Positions 2,317 to 37,799 of a DNA stretch of 37,799 nt are shown piece after piece. Position 1 is the first letter of the stretch. Each line of letters opens with the position of its first letter. The notes below the pieces were generated by a model. It was not told where the DNA came from and made no database searches. It worked only from the letters and a program-made list of their open reading frames with translations. The stretch lies in sequence record DRR723986_6321, one strand, 5' to 3'. Position numbers and translations under genes: made by a program.

Positions 2317-2393
2317 ACGACCGTAGCTCAGTTGGTTAGAGCACCACCTTGACATGGTGGGGGTCGGTGGTTCGAATCCACTCGGTCGTACCA
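2317..2393 (+). tRNA. tRNA-Val(GAC)
   Basis: Full cloverleaf: ACGACCG/CGGTCGT acceptor stem, CCACC-TTGACAT-GGTGG anticodon arm, TTCGAAT T-loop, encoded CCA. Confidence 0.97.
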
Positions 2394-4969: not shown

Positions 4970-5551
4970 CTAGCTATTGCTGCGTCCGGCATCGCTTGGC
5001 CGGTTCATATTCTTAAAGCGCTCAGCCTGATCGGAGAAATCCACTCTTTCAGCATGGCATTGTTCGAACCAGCCTTTAACGCTGCGCCGGCCCCGCTGTA
5101 AGTAGCCGTGCAGGCTTGCGCGGAGGTTCACAGGAATAAGTGCGTACAACACCTGGTCCTGCTCTCCGTCAAAGGCAAAACGAATTGCGTTGCTACTTTG
5201 CTCGCTCAGTCGCTGATACAGGTCGGTGGGCGGGCGGGGGTTGTCGCAGGGCACCACCAAAACCTGCGCGTGGGATGCGCCCTCAAGCCCCGCCAGGATC
5301 CCTGCCAAGGGGCCGGGGAAGTCGGGAAGTGTGTCGGGCAGGGGGCGTCCATAATCCCGGTAGCGGTCGCCATTGCGGTTGCAGCTTACCAACACTTCAT
5401 GGGCATTCTCGGCAAGCGTATCGACAACGTGGGCGATGAGCGGTCGGCCTTGCCAGTCCAGCAGGCCCTTGTCTTTGCCCTGCATTCGGCGCCCCTGTCC
5501 GCCAGCCAGAATTAACAGGCTATAGGGTTGGGCGGCATTGGTTTCTGGCAT
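4970..5551 (-). CDS. mobA: Molybdenum cofactor guanylyltransferase
   Basis: ILAGGQGRRMQGKDKGL, GPLAGI, VPCDNP and NMNRP motifs. Start uncertain (ATG 5551 or 5575). Confidence 0.9.
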   Translation of the reverse strand: MPETNAAQPYSLLILAGGQGRRMQGKDKGLLDWQGRPLIAHVVDTLAENAHEVLVSCNRNGDRYRDYGRPLPDTLPDFPGPLAGILAGLEGASHAQVLVVPCDNPRPPTDLYQRLSEQSSNAIRFAFDGEQDQVLYALIPVNLRASLHGYLQRGRRSVKGWFEQCHAERVDFSDQAERFKNMNRPSDAGRSNS

Positions 5552-5614
5552 TGAGGAAAACCCTGTTTTATCCATGAGTTCGGCGTGTTCGCTGCCTATG
5601 TTAGGGCTGTGCTG

Positions 5615-5623
5615 TGCTATCAT
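5615..5623 (+). promoter_or_regulatory. Extended -10 promoter candidate for tsaB
   Basis: TG-c-TATCAT about 35 nt upstream of the tsaB ATG. Confidence 0.45.
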
Positions 5624-5658
5624 GCCAGCGTTTTTTAGCGCTGTCGGATACTCTCCCT

Positions 5659-6333
5659 ATGACAACCCTGCTTGCCATCGATGCCTCAACATCGGCGTGT
5701 TCCGTTGCGCTGATGCATGAAGGGCAGGTGTACGAAGATTTTCGTATGCTGCCTCGCGCCCACACGCGATTTTTACTGCCCATGGTGGATGAGATGTTAG
5801 CTGCGCATTCACTGCCGCTCGCGCAGATGGATGCACTGGTTTTCACGGCGGGCCCGGGTTCTTTTACGGGCTTGCGGGTGGCCATTGCCACGGTGCAGGG
5901 CTTGGCCTTTGCGGCGGAATTGCCAGTAGTGCCTGTTTCAACCTTGGCAGCGATGGCGCAGTTCTACGCTGAGCGAGAGGGCGTGGCCGAAGGCGCATTG
6001 ATATTACCGGCGCTGGATGCGCGCATGGACGAGGTGTATTTCGGTCGCTATCAGTACCGCGATGGCGTGGTTGCACCGCTAAACGCTGATCAGTTGCTGC
6101 CACCTGAGCAAGTCGACAATACGGCTGCGGGCGCAGCGGGTATCGGCGATGGCTGGACCTATGCAGAGCGCTTTGGCGATGCCCCGCCAGCCACTGTTGA
6201 CCAAACGATCCTACCGAGTGCCGCCGCCGCGCTGCAGCTGGCAAAGCCAGATGTGTTGGCAGGGAAGGTGCTAGCTGCAGAGCAGGCTCAGCCGGTTTAT
6301 TTACGCGAAAGTGTGGCATGGAAGAAGCAATAA
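5659..6333 (+). CDS. tsaB: tRNA t6A37 threonylcarbamoyladenosine biosynthesis protein TsaB
   Basis: LAIDAST, GPGSFTGLRV, LDARMDEVY and P-x-YLR motifs. Start at ATG 5659. Confidence 0.95.
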   Translation: MTTLLAIDASTSACSVALMHEGQVYEDFRMLPRAHTRFLLPMVDEMLAAHSLPLAQMDALVFTAGPGSFTGLRVAIATVQGLAFAAELPVVPVSTLAAMAQFYAEREGVAEGALILPALDARMDEVYFGRYQYRDGVVAPLNADQLLPPEQVDNTAAGAAGIGDGWTYAERFGDAPPATVDQTILPSAAAALQLAKPDVLAGKVLAAEQAQPVYLRESVAWKKQ

Positions 6334-6454
6334 TCAGTACGTTATAAGCAATAGAAAATCAGTCACAGTGTGGGCCGGCCCGAGGCCCTGCTCACACTAC
6401 AATTGCACTGGCATAAACAGCCTCAAGCAAATTCGATAGATAGGAAAGCGTGTA

Positions 6455-7255
6455 ATGGATGCACTGCAAGCGGTGATATTAGCGGCAATTCAAGGCTTAA
6501 CGGAGTTTTTGCCGATCTCCAGTTCCGGGCATTTAGTCCTGCCGCAAACCTTGCTGGGCTGGGAAGATCAGGGCCTGGCTTTTGATGTTGCCGTGCATGT
6601 GGGGTCGCTGTTGGCGGTGCTGGCGTATTTTCGTAAAGACGTTAGCACACTGCTTACCGCCTGGACGCAGAGCGTGGTGGCACGGCAACACAGCGCCGAC
6701 AGTCGGCTTGCATGGATGGTGATTGTGGCAACACTGCCCGCCGTGGTTGCCGGGCTGATCTTTAACGATATTATCGAGCAACACCTGCGCGGTGGGGTGG
6801 TGCTGGCAACAACGACGTTAGTGTTTGGCGTGATTCTCGGCTTGGTTGATCGCTACTCCAGCCACAGCCGCAGTATTGCTGACATCGGCCTGCGCATTGC
6901 GTTGTTAGTTGGCTTCGCACAAGCGCTGGCGTTGGTGCCGGGTACGTCGCGATCGGGGATCACCATGACCGCGGCACTGTTATTAGGCTTGGGGCGCAGC
7001 GATGCCGCGCGCTTCTCCTTCCTGTTGTCCATGCCCATTATTGCGGCGGCGGGTAGTTATAAATTACTGGAATTACTGCAGCATGGCAGTGATGTCGCCT
7101 GGCAGCTGCTGGCAATCGGTCTGGCCGTTTCGGCGGTAACAGCCTACGCCTGTATCAGCGTATTTATGAAGTGGGTGGAGCGAGTCGGCATGATGCCCTT
7201 TGCCATATACCGAGTGGTACTGGCGATCATTATCTACGCTGTCGTGCTAGCCTGA
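6455..7255 (+). CDS. uppP: Undecaprenyl-diphosphate phosphatase (BacA/UppP)
   Basis: QGLTEFLPISSSGHL and PGTSRSGIT motifs, multi-pass hydrophobic profile. Confidence 0.96.
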   Translation: MDALQAVILAAIQGLTEFLPISSSGHLVLPQTLLGWEDQGLAFDVAVHVGSLLAVLAYFRKDVSTLLTAWTQSVVARQHSADSRLAWMVIVATLPAVVAGLIFNDIIEQHLRGGVVLATTTLVFGVILGLVDRYSSHSRSIADIGLRIALLVGFAQALALVPGTSRSGITMTAALLLGLGRSDAARFSFLLSMPIIAAAGSYKLLELLQHGSDVAWQLLAIGLAVSAVTAYACISVFMKWVERVGMMPFAIYRVVLAIIIYAVVLA

Positions 7256-7298
7256 CCGAGCAGCATAGCAACGCGGTGAAACAAAACGGGTGACGGTG

Positions 7299-8198
7299 AT
7301 GAAGGCAGCATTTTTAGGTTTAGGTGTGATGGGCTTTCCGATGGCTGGGCATGCCGCGAAGGCCGGGGTAGATCTGCGCGTATACAACCGCAGTGTGGAA
7401 AAAGCCCAACGCTGGCAAGCGACTTATTCCGACTGCGTTGCCGCGAGCGTCGCGGACGCGGTGGCAGATCGCGACGTTGTCGCAGTCTGTCTGGGGGCCG
7501 ACGCTGATGTGCGCGAGGTGCTGTGTGGCGAACAAGGCGTGTTTGCCCATATGCCGCATGGCGGTGTTGTGGTCGACCATTCCACCACCTCTGCCGAGCT
7601 GGCAAGAGAGATGGCGCAGGCCGCCACACGAGCCGGCCTGCAGTTTGTTGATGCACCAGTATCGGGTGGCCAAGCGGGAGCGGAGTCCGGCAAGCTCACA
7701 ATAATGGCGGGCGGAGAGCCGGCAGCTTTCGCCAAGGCTGAGCCGTTATTACAGTGCTATGCGGCGCGGTACCGTCTCCTTGGCGCGGTTGGCAGTGGTC
7801 AGTTGGCGAAAATGGTCAACCAGATCTGCATTGCCGGCCTGCTGCAGGGTTTGGCGGAAGGAATGAACTTTGGTCAGCGCGCAGGCTTGGATATGTCGGC
7901 GGTTGTGGATGTGATCAGCGCGGGTGCCGCCCAGTCCTGGCAGATGGATAATCGAGCGGAAACCATGCTGACCGGGGAATTTGACTTTGGCTTTGCCGTG
8001 GACTGGATGCGCAAGGACCTGTCGTATGTACTCGACGAGGCGCGTCGGCAGGGCAGCAGTCTGCCTGTGACGGCCTTGGTCGACCAATTTTACGCACAGG
8101 TGCAAAGCCTGGGCGGCGGTAGGAAAGATACATCAAGTTTGCTGTTAGCACTGCAGGCTTCGCAGCAACACGCACGTTCTTCCAGCGACAAGGGTTAG
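7299..8198 (+). CDS. NAD(P)-dependent beta-hydroxyacid dehydrogenase (3-hydroxyisobutyrate dehydrogenase/GarR family)
   Basis: FLGLGVMGFPMA Rossmann motif, DAPVSGG, K-x-x-N-Q catalytic motif, F-x-x-x-W-M-x-K-D-L. Confidence 0.9.
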   Translation: MKAAFLGLGVMGFPMAGHAAKAGVDLRVYNRSVEKAQRWQATYSDCVAASVADAVADRDVVAVCLGADADVREVLCGEQGVFAHMPHGGVVVDHSTTSAELAREMAQAATRAGLQFVDAPVSGGQAGAESGKLTIMAGGEPAAFAKAEPLLQCYAARYRLLGAVGSGQLAKMVNQICIAGLLQGLAEGMNFGQRAGLDMSAVVDVISAGAAQSWQMDNRAETMLTGEFDFGFAVDWMRKDLSYVLDEARRQGSSLPVTALVDQFYAQVQSLGGGRKDTSSLLLALQASQQHARSSSDKG

Positions 8199-8216
8199 CG
8201 AGTGATCGGATTGAAT

Positions 8217-9497
8217 ATGGATAAGCAAACGTTTAACCAGCAGTTGATGGCATTTTTAGATGCCAGCCCGACGCCTTTTCACGCGGCGAGCAATATGGCT
8301 GCAGCGCTGGACGCCGCGGGGTTTATCGCGTTGGATGAGCGTGATGATTGGTCGCTTGAAGCGGGCAAGGGCTACTATACCCTGCGCAACGGCGCTTCAA
8401 TTGTAGCCTTTCGAGTGGGTCAGGGTGATGTTGCCCAGCAGGGCTGGAAGATGGTCGGTGCCCACACTGACAGCCCCTGCTTGAAGGTGAAGCCCAACCC
8501 GGTACTGCACAAGAAGGGGTATTTTCAGCTCGGTGTGGATGTGTACGGCGGCGCGCTGCTCAACCCCTGGTTTGATCGCGACCTAGGCCTGGCAGGCCGC
8601 ATTAGCTACCGCAGCCAGGATGGCGAGTTACGTAATCGCCTGATTAATACCGAGCGAGCGATTGGCTGTATTCCCAGCTTGGCGATTCATTTGGACCGAG
8701 AGGCCAACAGTAACCGTAGTATCAATGCCCAGACTGATCTGCCGGTATTGATCAGTCAGCCTGAGAAAGCCCCCGACTTCAACGCCCTGCTCAAACAGTT
8801 GCTGATTGAGCAGGGCGGTAGTGATGTCGACACGGTTTTAGACTACGAACTGAGCTTTTATGACGTACAGGGTGCTGCCCTCGTCGGGCTTGAGCAAGAG
8901 TTTATTGCCAGTGCGCGTCTGGACAATCTGCTGTCTTGTTTTATCGGCTTGCAAGCCTTGCTGGCGGCGCCGTCGGATCAACACAGTGTGCTTGTCAGCA
9001 ACGACCATGAAGAAGTTGGCAGTATGTCGAGCAGTGGTGCTCAGGGGCCCATGTTGGAGTCGGTATTGCGCCGTATTGCCGGAGATGAAAGTCGCTGGCA
9101 GCGGGCCATTGCTCATTCTTTAATGATCTCTGCAGACAATGCGCACGGTGTTCACCCCAATTTCAGCGACCGCCACGACGCGAATCATGGGCCGCTGTTG
9201 AACCGCGGCGCCGTTATTAAAATTAACGTCAATCAGCGCTATGCCACTAACAGTGAAACCAGCGCGGCCTTTCGACATCTTTGCCAGCAGTGTCAGCAGC
9301 CGGTGCAGAGTTTTGTGGTGCGTAGCGACATGGCTTGTGGAAGCACGATCGGGCCGATTACATCGTCTGCACTGGGTGTGGCAACGTTGGATATCGGTGT
9401 GCCGACCTTTGCTATGCACTCAATACGTGAGCTTGCCGGCGCCGATGATGCGGTTGGATTAAGTCAGGTACTGGCAGCATTCTACGCGCGGCAATAG
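8217..9497 (+). CDS. M18 family aminopeptidase (aspartyl aminopeptidase-like)
   Basis: SPTPFHA, GAHTDSP, RLDNL, DHEEVGS, SADNAH, CGSTIGP and MHSIRE metal-binding motifs. Confidence 0.93.
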
Positions 9498-9506
9498 TGC
9501 CGCGCG
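9485..9506. terminator. GC-rich hairpin between convergent genes
   Basis: CGCGCGGCA-ATAG-TGCCGCGCG with the aminopeptidase stop codon in the loop. No U-tract, so terminator function is uncertain. Confidence 0.4.
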
Positions 9507-9531
9507 CATAACGCCCTATGGCGCAAATGTG

Positions 9532-10323
9532 TTACTCGCCCTTGAAGCTTGGCTTGCGGCGCTCTACAAACGCGGCCAAGCCCTCTTGACCATCCGCGCT
9601 GCCCACGCAGTGTGAAATTCCGCGGCTCTCCTGTTCGAGCTGGCATTCCAGTCCGTTTTCGTAGCTGCTCAGCAGCAGTGCGCGTGCGCGCGCATAGGCT
9701 TCGGTAGGGCCCGCTGCGAGTTGCGCGGCAATCTTGTCAGTTTCCGTAGCGAGGTCCTCGTCGGCAACCACCTTGGTGAGCAATCCCCAGTCCAGCGCCT
9801 CGGCAGCACTGAGAACGCGGTTGGTGTAAATCAATTCCTGCGCGCGGCGCAGGCCGACCAAGCGCGGCAGCCAGGTGGTCGAGCCGCCATCCGGGCTGAC
9901 CGCAATGCCGGTGTAGGCCATAGTGAACTTCGCCTTTTCGGAAGCCAGCACAATATCGCCAGACATCGCCAGGCTAAAACCGGCGCCAGCGGCAGTGCCA
10001 TTTACCGCGACAATCAGCGGCGCGCGCATACGGGCAAAACGCGAGTTGGCGGCGTGCAGGTTGGCGGTAATTTCTTTAATCAGTTGCGGTGCCTCATCGC
10101 CCGCTTGATGAAAGCTTTGTACATCGCCGCCGGCACAAAACATTTTGCCGTCAGCAGTGAGCACGACCGCGCGCACATCGGAATTGCTGTCACATAAAAT
10201 GGCCGCTTGCGCCAGCTCCTGAGCCATTTGTAGATTTAGACTGTGTGCCGCGTCGGGGCGGTTTAGCGAAATGCGAGCGATACCGTTTTCAAGTTCGAAG
10301 CGCAGGGTGTCAAATTGGCTCAT
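9532..10323 (-). CDS. Enoyl-CoA hydratase/isomerase (crotonase) family protein
   Basis: LNRPD, FCAGGD, AVNGTAAGAG, PDGG, and C-terminal EGLAAFVERRKPSF. Confidence 0.93.
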   Translation of the reverse strand: MSQFDTLRFELENGIARISLNRPDAAHSLNLQMAQELAQAAILCDSNSDVRAVVLTADGKMFCAGGDVQSFHQAGDEAPQLIKEITANLHAANSRFARMRAPLIVAVNGTAAGAGFSLAMSGDIVLASEKAKFTMAYTGIAVSPDGGSTTWLPRLVGLRRAQELIYTNRVLSAAEALDWGLLTKVVADEDLATETDKIAAQLAAGPTEAYARARALLLSSYENGLECQLEQESRGISHCVGSADGQEGLAAFVERRKPSFKGE

Positions 10324-10382
10324 GTCAGTGCTTGCCTATTGTTGTGAATGAACGTGGCGCGGGGCCAGATAGTGGGGAAAGA

Positions 10383-10411
10383 AGGGTAGTGCAGCACTGT
10401 AGTCGGGTCAA
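10383..10411 (-). promoter_or_regulatory. sigma70 promoter candidate for the crotonase gene
   Basis: Minus strand TTGACC (10411-10406), 17 nt, TACCCT (10388-10383). A plus-strand TATACT at 10416-10421 may serve the divergent glycosyltransferase. Confidence 0.5.
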
Positions 10412-10451
10412 CGAGTATACTTTCGACGATTCTGTAACGTGAGGGGAAACT

Positions 10452-11555
10452 GTGCGGATCTTGCTATTGTCGGCCTACCACGCGAATAGTCACAAAGCCT
10501 GGGCTGACGGTCTGGTGGCGGCGATGCCAGCACATCAGTGGACGGTGCTGACGCTGCCGCCACGCCATTTTAGCTGGCGATTACGCGGTAATAGCCTGAG
10601 TTGGGCAATGTTGCAAAGTGAAGCGCTAAACGCCGACTACGATCTGCTGGTCGCCACATCGATGACCGATTTATCTGCTCTGCGAGGGTTATGCCCGTCG
10701 CTTTGCCGCTTGCCGACGATGGTGTATTTCCACGAAAACCAGTTCGCCTACCCTGTGAGCGCGCAGCAGCGACAGGGCGTTGAACCTCAGATGCTAAATT
10801 TGTACACCGCTCTGGCGGCAGACAAGGTGCTGTTCAATAGCGACTATAACCGCCAAACGTTTATCGAGGGCGCCGATAGGCTGTTGGCGAAGTTGCCGGA
10901 CTTCAGTCCGCGCAGTGAGGTGATGAATCGGCTTAGCGACAGCGAGGTGCTGCCAGTGGGTATTGCACCGCCAGTACCAGCGGCGCCGCGCTTGCCGAGC
11001 GAGCGCTTGTCGGTGTTGTGGAATCACCGCTGGGAATACGATAAAGGCCCGGAGCAATTGCTCGCGGTATTGCAGGCCTGCGAGCGCGCCGCCTTGCCTC
11101 TCGACATACACATCATTGGCCAGCAGTTTCGCAAACGCCCCAAGGTCTTCGGTGACATTGAACGCTTGCTTAGCCGCAGCCAGTCGCTGGCTTGCGAACA
11201 TTTTGGCTACGTGGAAAGCCGCGAACAGTACGTAACACTCTTGGCCGCCAGTGATGTGGTGCTGTCGACGGCGCTGCACGATTTTCAGGGTTTGGCAGTG
11301 ATGGAGGCTGTCGCGGCGGGCTGCCGACCATTGTTGCCAGCGCGCTTGTGTTACCCGCAGTGGTTTGATGCGCCGTATTTATACGACAGCGCCCTGGATG
11401 CGCCCGCCGCAGAAGCGGAGTCGGCCGGCCAGGCACTGACTGCATTGCTGGCAGAGAAGCGCTGCGGGGCGCTACAGACGCCCGATATTTCCGACTTATA
11501 TTGGCCGTGTATCGCCGCGGAGTATCAGCATCATTTCGATGCGCTTTGCCGCTAA
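10452..11555 (+). CDS. DUF3524 + GT4-type glycosyltransferase, homolog of tRNA-queuosine alpha-mannosyltransferase (GTDC1/QTMAN)
   Basis: Motifs collinear with recalled GTDC1: SHK, TLP-x3-(F/W)-x-WR-x-R, YFHENQ-x-x-YPV, AD-x-V-x-FNS-x-x-N, W-x-HRWE-x-DK-x-PE, H-x-GY, DVV-x-STA-x-H(D/E)F-x-G-x-A-x-x-EAV-x-x-GC-x-PL-x-P-x-x-L-x-YP. GTG start after GAGGGG. Confidence 0.85.
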   Translation: MRILLLSAYHANSHKAWADGLVAAMPAHQWTVLTLPPRHFSWRLRGNSLSWAMLQSEALNADYDLLVATSMTDLSALRGLCPSLCRLPTMVYFHENQFAYPVSAQQRQGVEPQMLNLYTALAADKVLFNSDYNRQTFIEGADRLLAKLPDFSPRSEVMNRLSDSEVLPVGIAPPVPAAPRLPSERLSVLWNHRWEYDKGPEQLLAVLQACERAALPLDIHIIGQQFRKRPKVFGDIERLLSRSQSLACEHFGYVESREQYVTLLAASDVVLSTALHDFQGLAVMEAVAAGCRPLLPARLCYPQWFDAPYLYDSALDAPAAEAESAGQALTALLAEKRCGALQTPDISDLYWPCIAAEYQHHFDALCR

Positions 11556-11561
11556 GCGGCG

Positions 11562-11590
11562 GTGACAGCGCATCTGGCAGTCAGTATCAT
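11562..11590 (+). promoter_or_regulatory. sigma70 promoter candidate for trpS
   Basis: GTGACA (11562-11567), 17 nt, TATCAT (11585-11590), then GC-rich AGGCGGC. Confidence 0.6.
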
Positions 11591-11628
11591 AGGCGGCTTT
11601 TCGTTTTCCGTGAATACAGGACAGCATC

Positions 11629-12636
11629 ATGGCCAAGCCCCGGGTTCTCACCGGTATTACCACCACTGGCACGCCGCATTTGGGCAACTATGTTGGGGCA
11701 ATTCGCCCTGCAATTGCAGAGAGTCAGTCCACCGAGCAAGACAGTTTTTTCTTTCTGGCCGACTACCACGCATTGATCAAATGCCAGGATCCGGCGGCGG
11801 TGCATCAGTCTGCCCGTGAGATTGCGGCTACGTGGCTGGCGTTGGGCCTGGATACGGATCGCACGACCTTTTATCGCCAGTCTGATGTGCCGGAAATCAC
11901 GGAGTTGATGTGGGTGCTCAACTGTGTGGCGAGCAAGGGCTTGATGAACCGCGCCCACGCCTATAAGGCGGCGGTGCAGGACAATCAGGAAAAAGGCGAG
12001 GACGCCGATTTCGGTGTCACCATGGGGCTGTTCTGTTACCCGGTGTTAATGGCGGCAGATATCCTGATGTTTAACGCGCAGCGTGTGCCGGTGGGGCGTG
12101 ATCAAACCCAGCACTTGGAAATGGCGCGCGATATCGCTCAGCGTTTTAACCATATTTACGGTGAAACATTTGCCCTGCCAGAGGCCGTTGTCGATGAAGA
12201 CGTGGCGGTGCTCAGTGGCTTGGATGGCAGAAAAATGAGTAAAAGCTACGGCAATACCATTCCGCTGTTTTTGCCTGAGAAAAAACTCAAAAAACACATC
12301 AATAAAATCAAAACCAATCTGTTGGAGCCGGGTGAGCCCAAAGACCCAGATGACTCAACGGTTTTTCAAATTTGGCAGGCCTTTGCCAATGCCGAGCAAA
12401 CGGCGTACATGCGCCGCGAGTTTGAAAACGGTATTGCCTGGGGCGAGGCCAAAAAGCAGTTATTTGAATTGATCAACGATCAAATTTCTGCGGCGCGTGA
12501 GCGTTACGATGCCATGCTCAACGACGGCAGTTACCTCGATGCTGAGCTGGCCAAAGGCGCAGAGAAAGCCCGCGCCGAGGCGGCAACGATGCTCGATAAA
12601 GTGCGCGGTGCAGTAGGTTTGTCACGCTTCGGCTAA
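11629..12636 (+). CDS. trpS: Tryptophan--tRNA ligase
   Basis: TG-x-x-x-x-G-x-x-HLGN (HIGH), [14 protein letters not shown]-x-DQ-x-QH and KMSKS motifs. Confidence 0.97.
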
Positions 12637-19292: not shown

Positions 19293-19639
19293 GTGTCCGT
19301 CGTTCCTTATTGTAATGACTAAATAAAACAAGAGCCGCAGTGTAATAGGACGCAGCCTCGCTGCAAAGGCTTCGCTGGGTGTGCGCTGTTTTCGCGCAAC
19401 CGGGATTGGCTGCAATTACCAGCACTGCTGGGTGACATGCGTAAAATGAGGGGAGGCGTAGTTGAGTATTTGATTGCTCTGGGGCGGGGTATTTTGCGGC
19501 TATGGTAAATCGTTATATAAATAGTTAAAGTTTTACTCTAGGTATTCGCTCTCTTGAATACGAGTTCTACCGTGGGGCTGCCCCCGTCGATGGCGGCGGC
19601 TTATTGCCGGTAGCGGTTAATTACATAGGAAGTATAAAG

Positions 19640-20929
19640 ATGTTTCTTCAAGGATTGAGGTTCTGCCTGACTGGCAGGGCGGTATTTGTTGTTTTATCAA
19701 TTACCCTGATTGTCGGTTGTGGCGGATCGGGCGGTGGCTCTGGTGAGACAAGTCGTCCTCCGTCCGGCTATCTTGCTGATCACTCAGTGTCCTCTACGTA
19801 CGAGCTAACGCGGGCCAACGTTCCAGTGGTGGCAGAAACGCTGCGGTTTGAAACGATGGGGGCCATTTTTATTTTTGATGAATTGCGCAAACTATATCCG
19901 CAGCCGATGCCGACCTTTCAACTTAAAAATGCCCGCAGGAAGGTTGCTTGTGATCACTCTGGTTATGTGATGGTCACCATCAAGGATCGTGGCGCAACGA
20001 TCGCTCAGGACTATGAGAATTGCAAAGATAGTGAGGATGGTGTGCTTATCAGCGGCACACTCCGATCATATATTCACGATGTAGACAACGCTGCCAAGAC
20101 CTATAAGGCCACCATTGAGTATGTCGATTACAGCGGCTCTCAAGATGGAGAGCGTACCACTCGCAGCACTATTCAAGTTTTTTCAGTGAGCGTTGACGAA
20201 AATAACATCCTGTTTGTTGAAACAGAAAGCCATGGCACCACGTTTGATTCCGGTGTTGGTGAGGAATATGAGAGCAATCTTCGTTTTACCTCAATTTATT
20301 ATCGGCTACCGGATGCATTTTTCGGCGTTCCCGAAATTAACGGTTACATGGATTATCAGAGTAGCGGAGCCGTATTGCTGTCGTCCCAAACGGATGGAGT
20401 GTTGACGACCATAGCGGGATTCGGTGATGAGCGAGCCGCCTTTAAGTTGTTTTTGAATCATTACGGCATTGGTTTTACAACGGCTGACGGTGAGCAGTTC
20501 AGCGCCGGCGTAGCAATGGATAAGGTGTCGGAGGTCGATGCATTTTCTGCCAGTAATAACGCTCCTGAAGCGAAATCGCGGGTGAATAACAAGGTGTTTT
20601 ACGCTGATGAGAATGCCCCGATCGTTTTGGCACTCGACGACGCCTTTTATGATCCCGACCTGGATTTGCTGAAGGTGGATGTGACTGTGCAATGCCAGCC
20701 TGAAAATGCTGACGTCAGTGTTGACTTCCAGGAACCCTTTAAGATGACGGTGACCACTGATACCTTCGGCTCTTATACACTCTATGTGGTCGTCACCGAT
20801 GCTCAAGGCAGGTCGGTTAATGCCTCTTTTCCCTTCCAGTACTGGGCAGAGGAAGGGGCTGAAAATAACGAGCCGAGGGTGTGTAGCACACTCCCCCCAT
20901 CGCTTCCCATCGGGATGTTTGCCGAGTAA
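19640..20929 (+). CDS. Hypothetical lipoprotein with C-terminal cadherin/Ig-like domain
   Basis: Lipobox IVG-C followed by a GGSGGGSG linker. C-terminal NNAP...DPDLD...VTDAQG resembles Ca-binding Ig/cadherin-like repeats. AGGA before ATG 19640. Confidence 0.75.
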   Translation: MFLQGLRFCLTGRAVFVVLSITLIVGCGGSGGGSGETSRPPSGYLADHSVSSTYELTRANVPVVAETLRFETMGAIFIFDELRKLYPQPMPTFQLKNARRKVACDHSGYVMVTIKDRGATIAQDYENCKDSEDGVLISGTLRSYIHDVDNAAKTYKATIEYVDYSGSQDGERTTRSTIQVFSVSVDENNILFVETESHGTTFDSGVGEEYESNLRFTSIYYRLPDAFFGVPEINGYMDYQSSGAVLLSSQTDGVLTTIAGFGDERAAFKLFLNHYGIGFTTADGEQFSAGVAMDKVSEVDAFSASNNAPEAKSRVNNKVFYADENAPIVLALDDAFYDPDLDLLKVDVTVQCQPENADVSVDFQEPFKMTVTTDTFGSYTLYVVVTDAQGRSVNASFPFQYWAEEGAENNEPRVCSTLPPSLPIGMFAE

Positions 20930-21249: not shown

Positions 21250-21353
21250 TCCATCGGCTAAAAAAATTGCGGTTTTCGCACTAAATGTCGATGAATGGAG
21301 TCCGAAAGCGATTTCCGTTAATCTTGCGGCCTTTATTTTTAGTGATCGAGAGT

Positions 21354-23878
<2,525 letters not shown>

Positions 23879-37169: not shown

Positions 37170-37799
37170 ATGCTAGAAATTAATCCCCTGCGCAATGCCC
37201 TTAAGGATATGACTGAGCGTACCGATACGCTTAGGGGGTATCTTTGACTACGCTAACAAGAAAGAGCGCCTAACTGAGGTCGAGCTGGAGCTCGGTGATT
37301 CCGCGGTGTGGGACGACCCTGCTCGCGCCCAGGAGCTTGGCCGCGAGCGCGCCAACCTGGAAGGTGTGGTGGGCGCCATCGATGAGTTAGATGCCGGTAT
37401 TGGCGACGCTTCTGAACTGCTCGATATGGCGGCAGAGGAAAACGATGAAGACACCATTGAGGCCGTGCAGGGCGACATAGAACGCCTCGAAGGGGTGCTA
37501 GCCAAATTGGAATTCCGCCGTATGTTCTCCGGTGAAATGGACCCCAACAACTGTTATTTGGATATTCAGTCGGGTTCCGGCGGCACCGAAGCCCAGGACT
37601 GGGCCAATATGGTGCTGCGCATGTATTTGCGCTGGTGCGAAGACAAAGGCTTCAAGGCAGAACTGGTTGAAGTCTCTGACGGCGAAGTGGCGGGGATCAA
37701 AAGTGCAACCATCCATATTCAGGGCGAATATGCCTTCGGTTGGCTGCGCACCGAGACCGGCGTTCACCGCCTGGTTCGCAAGTCGCCCTTTGATTCGGG
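37170..37799 (+). CDS. prfB: Peptide chain release factor 2, with programmed +1 frameshift; truncated at window end
   Basis: The 25-codon [28 protein letters not shown] ends in CTT TGA C. The +1 frame continues DYANKKERL...GGTEAQDWA...[13 protein letters not shown] (RF2 SPF motif). Confidence 0.97.
37233..37248 (+). promoter_or_regulatory. prfB +1 ribosomal frameshift site
   Basis: Internal SD AGGGGG (37233-37238), TAT, then CTT TGA C (37242-37248): the canonical RF2 autoregulatory cassette. Confidence 0.97.

Follow-up and report, generated by a model that had tools for sequence, protein, structure and literature searches.

Gene and predicted protein

The DNA stretch analysed here, 37,799 nucleotides from sequence record DRR723986_6321 and referred to throughout as the window, was found to carry a gene for a 367-residue glycosyltransferase (GT) of the family of animal QTMAN (GTDC1), the tRNA-queuosine alpha-mannosyltransferase. 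The N-terminal domain of the protein matched the PF12038 profile (QTMAN_N, formerly DUF3524) over its full length, positions 1-168 of 168, with 193.2 bits against a cut-off of 25 (E 3.7e-57). The Glycos_transf_1 profile (PF00534) passed marginally, with 26.7 bits against a cut-off of 26.4, and the presence of a donor domain downstream of the N-terminal domain was backed by profile matches to the donor domains of GT family 4 (GT4) enzymes (TarM, E 5e-8) and by the GT-B fold described below. No NCBIfam model fitted the protein, the best being EpsE, with 15.8 bits against a cut-off of 400, and HpsP, with 13 bits against 550. The open reading frame (ORF) starts with a GTG codon, and homologues begin at the same residue in an alignment of 41 family members that are 33-59% identical to the window protein. 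No leader or riboswitch was found near the gene with Rfam, whose sole finds in the window were two tRNA genes.

An earlier interpretation of the window made from its letters alone (the sequence-only reading) had assigned the protein to the GT-B enzymes of the QTMAN family on the strength of a list of motifs. The assignment was borne out. The motifs were located at residues 13 (SHK), 34 (TLPPRHFSWRLRG), 92 (YFHENQFAYPV), 128 (FNSDYN), 192 (HRWEYDKGPE) and 276 (HDFQGLAVME), and all listed residues were present and conserved in the family. The long C-terminal pattern gave no match at its literal spacing because four residues, not three, separate its glycine from EAV.

An AlphaFold2 model built from the alignment had a predicted local distance difference test score of 95.3 and a predicted template modelling (TM) score of 0.92, and consisted of two alternating beta/alpha (Rossmann-like) halves. 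It contained no low-confidence segment, and its secondary structure left no extra membrane segment. When the model was compared to the PDB with Foldseek, retaining GT-B enzymes were recovered exclusively (GlgM 6tvp, archaeal glycogen synthase, OtsA, MshA, SenB, BshA, PimA and PglA), with E values of 1e-13 to 1e-9, TM scores of approximately 0.6-0.73 and identities of 11-18%; lower TM scores were obtained for MshA 3c48 (0.42) and sucrose-phosphate synthase 9dcm (0.49). By sequence, the single protein retrieved only WaaG/RfaG from the PDB, at E 0.13, and the alignment profile retrieved only C-terminal donor domains (TarM, Gtf1, GlgA, WaaG and BshA). No QTMAN structure was detectable by sequence in the PDB, and the N-terminal domain had no sequence-detectable relative there; the acceptor domain is therefore family-specific, and its specificity cannot be read from known structures. 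These findings show the gene product to be a soluble GT-B glycosyltransferase that belongs to the QTMAN/DUF3524 family and is predicted to be cytoplasmic and to act with retention of configuration.

Conservation within the family

Residues D64, N96, N129, P149, R193, K198, P200, G223, Y260, G280, P296 and Y301 were invariant in the alignment. Conservation of at least 90% was found, among others, for S13, H14, P36, W42, R43, Y92, H94, E95, Q97, Y100, P101, F128, S130 and N133 in the N-terminal half and for W190, N191, H192, W194, E195, D197, S272, T273, F278 and E285 in the C-terminal half. The family motifs SH, WR, YFHENQ..YP, FNS..N, WNHRWE.DK.P and ST..H[DE]F.G....E are all present in the window protein and reach the same level. 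Some 17 positions of the N-terminal domain are conserved at this level across the 41 sequences, which include at least one named protein from a metagenome-assembled genome (MAG) of a distant phylum (P0241, 'Actinobacteria bacterium').

The sequence-only reading had singled out an aspartate where the GT4 E-x7-E motif has its first acidic residue. The residue is present (D277), and the family stretch heFqGlsvleA was found to align with YEGQGLSMIEA of TarM, which places it in that motif. Among 115 aligned family members, however, position 277 is Asp in 66 and Glu in 49, so there is nothing special about it, and by this comparison the substitution is ordinary family variation.

Size, distribution and naming of the family

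In a word-indexed search, 4081 of 8000 scored candidates matched the window protein at E<=1e-3, and each of the 120 best matches listed carried PF12038; the best matches listed are thus not generic GT4 enzymes. An exhaustive search of representatives clustered at 50% identity gave 2528, 1676 and 844 clusters at E<=1e-3, 1e-10 and 1e-30, respectively. At least 596 matches (in 600 stretches) were confirmed in species-representative genomes, and the best 80 of these loci were used for the locus comparisons. Nearly all of the 80 belong to marine Gammaproteobacteria, namely Spongiibacteraceae, Halieaceae, Microbulbifer, Cellvibrionaceae, Marinobacterium, Marinobacter, Halomonas/Vreelandella/Kushneria, Marinomonas, Pseudohongiellaceae and Amphritea, and a small remainder bears the labels Myxococcota, Zetaproteobacteria or Bacteroidota. 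One of them (L004), from a record titled Pontibacter sp. JAM-7 (Bacteroidota), encodes a protein 50% identical to that of the window and groups with Marinobacterium in the tree described below; this points to a mislabelled or contaminated record or to a transfer of the gene.

When the search was started from the distant member P0241, all 120 matches listed again carried PF12038, and the few named ones bore the MAG labels Actinobacteria, Planctomycetota, Nitrospirae, Thermodesulfobacteriota, Desulfobulbaceae, Deltaproteobacteria and TA06. No eukaryote-named protein was among the 120 matches listed from the window protein or the 120 from P0241. A search of the ESM Atlas recovered family members alone. 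In five phage records the match was limited to residues 188-311, at 28.6% identity, and a link to phages or DNA modification was rejected.

Bacterial members are named 'tRNA-queuosine alpha-mannosyltransferase (domain-containing protein)' or 'DUF3524 domain-containing protein' in NCBI/UniRef, and many matches carry the JGI name 'glycosyltransferase involved in cell wall biosynthesis'. Since the QTMAN name already stands on bacterial members in these databases, the homology is existing knowledge and is not new. Judged from its sequence, the window gene is an ordinary representative of the bacterial branch of the QTMAN family, which is already known but experimentally uncharacterised.

The best match of the window protein was 97% identical to it, and the named relatives at 56-59% identity were from Zhongshania. 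Cultivable carriers of the family include Zhongshania, Microbulbifer, Marinobacter and Halomonas. In a quick tree of 74 family members, the window protein grouped with L001 and L002, both of them Spongiibacteraceae loci, but the support was weak (SH-like approximate likelihood ratio test 84). The window thus most likely derives from a Spongiibacteraceae-like member of the Cellvibrionales.

Genes of the window

The 33 ORFs scanned in the window are chromosomal housekeeping genes of a gammaproteobacterium; coordinates of the relevant features are given in Table 1. Upstream of the GT gene lie, in order and with (-) marking the minus strand, uvrB, katG, mobA (-), tsaB, uppP, a 3-hydroxyisobutyrate-dehydrogenase-like gene and the genes for an M18 aminopeptidase and an enoyl-CoA hydratase (-). 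The GT gene is followed by trpS and by genes for an EamA transporter (-), a nitroreductase (-), a cyclase (-), a LysR regulator, a TonB-dependent receptor (-) and a thioesterase (-), then by an ORF of 441 amino acids, queA, tgt and genes for a hexapeptide transferase, a CNNM/CorC protein (-) and a cytochrome c assembly protein (-), and finally by ffh, rimM, trmD, rplS, xerD, dsbC, hom, thrC, recJ and prfB. No gene for lipopolysaccharide (LPS) or exopolysaccharide (EPS) synthesis or for sugar-nucleotide metabolism was found among the 33, which agrees with the claim that the GT gene lies outside any such cluster.

Table 1. Positions of the glycosyltransferase gene, its features and selected neighbours in the window
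Feature	Position	Strand	Basis or remark
Shine-Dalgarno-like GAGGGG	10441..10446	+	5 nt before the GTG start; read from the sequence
Gene for the 367-residue QTMAN/DUF3524-family glycosyltransferase	10452..11555 (end includes the stop codon)	+	ORF, Pfam, AlphaFold2 model, Foldseek
QTMAN_N domain, residues 2-171, presumed acceptor-binding half	10455..10964	+	Pfam coordinates; conservation in the 41-sequence alignment
Glycos_transf_1 donor-binding domain, Pfam stretch residues 181-291, including WNHRWEYDKGP	10992..11324	+	Pfam
D277-x7-E285, family version of the GT4 E-x7-E motif (HDFQGLAVME from residue 276)	11280..11306	+	Motif search
Sigma-70-like promoter match GTGACA, 17 nt, TATCAT (10/12)	11562..11590	+	Consensus match only
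trpS	11629..12636	+	Pfam PF00579; downstream neighbour, given as context only
tRNA-Val-GAC	2317-2393	+	ARAGORN, Rfam
tRNA-Leu-CAA	21121-21207	-	ARAGORN, Rfam
queA	21285-22415	+	NCBIfam equivalog QueA, 493 bits (cut-off 324)
tgt	22408-23571	+	NCBIfam equivalog Tgt, 539.7 bits (cut-off 306.75)

As the sequence-only reading had described, the GT gene lies directly upstream of trpS, from which it is separated by 73 nt, and approximately 10 kb (9.7 kb) upstream of queA-tgt. Its account of the window contents was right in naming tsaB and trmD; its count of three tRNA genes was too high, since two were found by both ARAGORN and Rfam. No terminator-like hairpin was found in the spacer between the GT gene and trpS. 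The promoter-like site in the spacer is a consensus match only, and two sigma-70-like sites were found where 1.7 were expected in shuffled sequence. The lineage-specific synteny described below agrees with the reservation of the sequence-only reading that the adjacency may be incidental.

Both queA and tgt reached their NCBIfam equivalog cut-offs, and the Tgt protein contains FDEC at residue 160 and GGLSVGE at residue 229, as had been noted. The host would accordingly be predicted to insert preQ1 into tRNA and to convert it towards queuosine (Q), and a Q-tRNA substrate would be available to the GT. The genes queG/queH and queC/D/E/F do not lie in the window.

Some further features of the window were observed. 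The 441-residue ORF (19604-20926, +), which lies between the thioesterase gene and tRNA-Leu/queA, had no Pfam or NCBIfam match at E<=1e-5. The same was true of an ORF (23525-23878, +) that follows tgt at the expected place of yajC; it shares 55% identity with the translation of the equivalent position in a Halieaceae locus (L034). Because this ORF begins before tgt has ended, its true start may be further downstream. The prfB gene (37171-37797, with an ATG at 37171) contains the classic programmed +1 frameshift site, a known phenomenon: AGGGGG is followed by TAT CTT TGA C at 37242-37248, and the frame of the PCRF domain continues from 37306.

Neighbourhood across related loci

The 33 window proteins were compared to the 80 loci by tblastn. 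Full 10-kb flanks on both sides were available in 51 of the 80, and the counts are therefore lower bounds. The trpS gene was found in 19 loci, and in 17 it lay on the same strand within 350 nt downstream of the GT gene. Likewise, tsaB and uppP were each found in 20 loci, the M18 peptidase gene in 18, the dehydrogenase gene in 14 and mobA in 11. The loci with any of these genes were Cellvibrionales-type taxa without exception, and the arrangement tsaB-uppP-(dehydrogenase)-M18 peptidase-[GT]-trpS is the synteny of one order. In six Halieaceae and related loci (L029, L031, L046, L073, L076 and L078), the distance between the end of the M18 aminopeptidase gene and the GT start ranges from an overlap of 4 nt to a gap of 25 nt, a spacing that suggests co-transcription; in the window (M18 gene at 8202-9497), L030 and L038, an opposite-strand enoyl-CoA hydratase gene lies between the two.

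The tgt gene lay within 10 kb in six of the 80 loci and queA in two. At random, tgt would be expected at this distance in approximately 0.4 of 80 loci for a genome of about 4 Mb, by our own estimate. Five of the six belong to the Pseudohongiellaceae clade (three so labelled and two with a class-level label), where tgt is on the opposite strand beyond secF-secD-yajC, and the sixth is the Halieaceae locus L034. Because the six cases fall into two clades, they represent at most two events and give only a weak hint.

Neighbours were also identified de novo by calling ORFs in each locus and clustering six genes on each side of the GT gene. This was done for 73 loci and the window, L009, L034, L037, L039, L042, L051 and L066 having been dropped because the GT gene was missed by the ORF caller. 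Fifty recurrent neighbour families were annotated with Pfam, and 13 of them also with NCBIfam. None of the 50 was an LPS/EPS glycosyltransferase or a sugar-nucleotide enzyme. The neighbours were found to differ between lineages. Halomonadaceae had either endonuclease III together with the rnf operon or an ArsA-like ATPase together with CstA, and the Pseudohongiellaceae clade had lytic transglycosylases along with secDF-yajC-tgt. In Marinomonas the neighbours were YaeQ and a dienelactone hydrolase, in Amphritea they were Sel1-repeat proteins, and in Cellvibrionaceae a cyclic-nucleotide-binding/rhodanese protein was present. In two Marinobacterium loci (L007 and L048), a DyP peroxidase gene was present and selD and mnmH (tRNA 2-selenouridine synthase) lay approximately 1-2 kb downstream; mnmH was also found five genes upstream of the GT gene in L067. 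The selD and mnmH genes of L007 and L048 (about 1-3 kb downstream) matched their NCBIfam equivalogs with 552 and 496 bits, and an opposite-strand gene lies between them and the GT gene. A same-strand neighbour within 120 nt was present upstream of 33 and downstream of 31 of the 74 genes, the partners coming from many unrelated families.

When the contexts were mapped on the 74-member tree, which broadly matches taxonomy, they were found to be clade-specific. The nth/rnf (8 rows), secDF-tgt (6 rows) and glucosylglycerate-cluster (3 rows) contexts each required one change, selD/mnmH (3 rows) required two, and trpS (15 rows) required five, of which at least two were forced. These findings indicate that the closeness to trpS, tsaB and queA-tgt is synteny within the order of the host and not an operon-level functional link. 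As judged from the tree, the GT gene itself appears to be a vertically inherited, stand-alone housekeeping gene. The sequence-only reading had taken the tRNA-metabolism genes around it as evidence of function. This argument is weak: adjacency to trpS was seen only in Cellvibrionales (17 of 80 loci), tgt is nearby in two clades, and the neighbours elsewhere are unrelated.

A glucosylglycerate cluster in Marinobacter

In three Marinobacter loci of the 80 (L049, L057 and L060), the GT gene was found 14-46 nt downstream, on the same strand, of a four-gene set. The set encodes a P-loop kinase related to D-glycerate 3-kinase (PDB 7xpc, E 1.1e-17; 6ckg, E 2.8e-15), a hydrolase of the mannosyl-3-phosphoglycerate-phosphatase family of haloacid dehalogenase-like enzymes, a GpgS-like glucosyl-3-phosphoglycerate synthase (NF040724, 386 bits, below the cut-off of 700) and a sucrose-phosphorylase-like enzyme of glycoside hydrolase family 13 (TIGR03852, 196.5 bits, below the cut-off of 334.4). 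A 714-residue protein named as Marinobacter antarcticus (P0389) contains a glycerate-kinase-like domain, 55-61% identical to the kinases of the three loci, fused to the GT. It was the sole fused form among the 8000 scored candidates, and eight longer family members of 399-483 residues had no extra Pfam domain. The cluster (about 5100-12100 in the three loci) also has a gene for a Zn-dependent alcohol dehydrogenase.

Proposed function and alternatives

The family membership of the protein is firm, and the question of function comes down to its acceptor. We propose, with a probability of about 0.45, that the enzyme is a retaining transferase of nucleoside diphosphate (NDP)-hexose that would act on the queuosine at position 34 (Q34) of tRNA, and we put the overall probability of a bacterial hexosyl-queuosine at about 0.4-0.45. 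Q34 is proposed as the acceptor because the animal homologue acts there. The C-terminal Rossmann half would bind the NDP-hexose through the invariant R193 and K198 and through D277-x7-E285. From GT4 structures, we take R193 and K198 to contact the donor diphosphate and D277/E285 to bind the sugar and the ribose. The N-terminal half, which by analogy with other GT-B enzymes probably binds the acceptor, would present the acceptor hydroxyl in the interdomain cleft, and its loops S13-H14, P36...W42-R43, Y92-H94-E95-N96-Q97 and F128-N129-S130...N133 would line the acceptor site. By homology with animal QTMAN, the acceptor would be the cyclopentenediol of Q at position 34 of a tRNA with a GUN anticodon (tRNA-Asp by analogy), GDP-mannose the most likely donor and hexosyl-queuosine (Q + 162 Da) the product. 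In one preprint, mannosyl-queuosine is followed at m/z 572 to 163 (10.64898/2026.03.22.713446). Escherichia coli makes Q and is not known to carry a member of the family.

Animal QTMAN is described, in the part of the source available, as using GDP-mannose and forming an alpha-linkage to the allylic hydroxyl of Q (10.64898/2026.06.28.735034), and the predicted retaining GT-B fold of the window protein fits such an alpha-mannosyl transfer. The likeness between the two, as seen through the profile, consists of the QTMAN_N domain followed by Glycos_transf_1. They differ in that the host of the window protein is a bacterium that, from its tgt and queA genes, would make Q de novo via preQ1. With the retaining GT-B enzymes of families GT4, GT5 and GT20 (GlgM, MshA, BshA, PimA, OtsA and SenB), the window protein shares the overall fold, the donor domain and, by profile, the E-x7-E-type motif; it differs from them in its low identity and in an N-terminal domain for which they have no sequence-detectable counterpart. 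If the proposal is right, the protein would be a functional analogue of GluQRS (YadB), a paralogue of aminoacyl-tRNA synthetases that belongs to an unrelated protein family and adds glutamate instead of a sugar. In the available part of a review, GluQRS, whose substrate is tRNA-Asp, stands alone among characterised bacterial enzymes in modifying the cyclopentenediol of Q34 (PMC7694415).

Several observations were counted in favour of Q34 as the acceptor. These are the full-profile PF12038 match and the presence of PF12038 in all of the best matches listed, the occurrence of tgt and queA in the window, the lack of LPS/EPS or sugar-nucleotide families among the 50 recurrent neighbours, the soluble acceptors of the retaining GT-B enzymes that were the top Foldseek matches, and the agreement of the tree with taxonomy, which would be expected of a housekeeping gene inherited vertically. 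The proximity of tgt within 10 kb in six loci and of selD-mnmH within approximately 2 kb in L007 and L048 provides further hints. The conservation of the N-terminal domain would also be better explained by one universal acceptor than by lineage-specific metabolites.

Other observations weigh against it. No operon partner is conserved across lineages, and three loci together with one fusion tie the enzyme to glucosylglycerate metabolism in one genus. The literature searched yielded no experiment on any bacterial member, and a 2020 review, in the part available, places mannosyl-queuosine (ManQ) and galactosyl-queuosine (GalQ) in eukaryotes and reports them as absent from Bacteria (PMC7694415). 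The acidic overall charge of the protein was also listed on this side, but it has no discriminating power: the isoelectric point of 5.77 was rejected as a sign of RNA binding or its lack, since the Tgt (5.35), QueA (5.45) and TrmD (4.91) proteins of the same window are more acidic.

The Marinobacter cluster raises the possibility that the enzyme adds a second hexose to glucosylglycerate or glucosyl-3-phosphoglycerate and so makes a glycerate-type compatible solute of the mannosylglucosylglycerate kind. A functional model for such a step is MggA of Rhodopirellula baltica and Petrotoga mobilis, described in the available part of the source as a mannosylglucosyl-3-phosphoglycerate synthase, a retaining GT4 alpha-mannosyltransferase that acts after GpgS (PMC3736172). 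Besides the cluster and the kinase-GT fusion, the small-molecule glycosyltransferases among the nearest solved folds (MshA, BshA, OtsA, SenB and GlgM) agree with a solute acceptor, and the conserved Arg residues of the N-terminal domain could equally bind phosphoglycerate. However, the link is found in one genus and on one branch of the tree, and four other loci of the Marinobacter clade have different neighbours. The linked enzymes retain 39-40 of 40 family-conserved positions (37 of 40 in the fusion protein), which gives no hint of an altered acceptor site. Moreover, MggA has 530 residues and only twelve homologues, compared to thousands in the QTMAN family, and on the description available appears to belong to a different family (PMC3736172), and the animal homologue acts on tRNA. 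We regard a solute acceptor as unlikely, though as the most probable of the alternatives.

Still less probable is a related nucleoside or nucleic-acid acceptor, such as free queuosine, a queuine-type salvage intermediate, epoxyqueuosine- or preQ1-tRNA, or another RNA. The acceptor domain is common to QTMAN and its specificity is unreadable from sequence, and bacterial hosts, unlike animals, make Q de novo, so that other 7-deazaguanine intermediates would be available to the enzyme. Yet genes for queuosine salvage or 7-deazaguanine synthesis were not recurrent neighbours in the 80 loci and 50 families, and no phage homologue pointing to DNA modification was found. That the protein is an ordinary glycosyltransferase of the cell envelope (LPS, EPS or cell wall) is very improbable. 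The JGI name would suggest it, as would uppP four genes upstream in the window and the sub-threshold NCBIfam EPS matches, which are confined to the C-terminal domain (E 0.006-0.06, 12-16 bits against cut-offs of approximately 260-550). Against this, the gene does not lie in a polysaccharide or sugar-nucleotide cluster in the window, no polysaccharide cluster was seen among the 50 recurrent neighbour families, and no curated EPS/LPS glycosyltransferase model of NCBIfam fits the protein. The model is that of a compact soluble GT-B enzyme with no extra membrane segment, and the N-terminal domain is family-specific and common to a cytoplasmic tRNA enzyme. Of the overall interpretation given by the sequence-only reading, family membership thus stands, the neighbourhood argument is largely incidental, and one lineage points to a small-molecule acceptor.

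Significance

Sugar-modified queuosine is currently regarded as a feature of vertebrate or eukaryotic tRNA, as far as the available parts of two sources show (PMC7694415; PMC10690763); the latter describes it from vertebrate tRNAs. No description of a bacterial family member or of bacterial glycosyl-queuosine was found in the literature searched, outside which lies the 2023 Cell paper that identified QTMAN. No bacterial study was among the titles listed on manQ from 2023 on, the available parts of papers mentioning QTMAN or GTDC1 contained nothing on bacterial homologues, and 'DUF3524', PF12038 and glycosyl-queuosine were without mention in the literature searched.

We tentatively suggest, as a view we consider somewhat less probable than not, that a hexosyl-Q made by this family is present in the tRNA of many bacteria, among them marine Gammaproteobacteria and, to judge from MAG labels, members of several other phyla. 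Animal QTMAN would then be a descendant of the family, and Q glycosylation would be a bacterial invention along with Q itself, missed because the model bacteria examined to date carry GluQRS or no hypermodification. If the acceptor were instead a glycerate-type solute or another small molecule, the QTMAN-derived names now spreading in bacterial annotation would mislead. If Q34 is the acceptor, bacterial tRNA would be found to have a further modification, animal QTMAN would probably be of bacterial origin, and the role of Q glycosylation in decoding and tRNA stability could be approached in a genetically tractable system.

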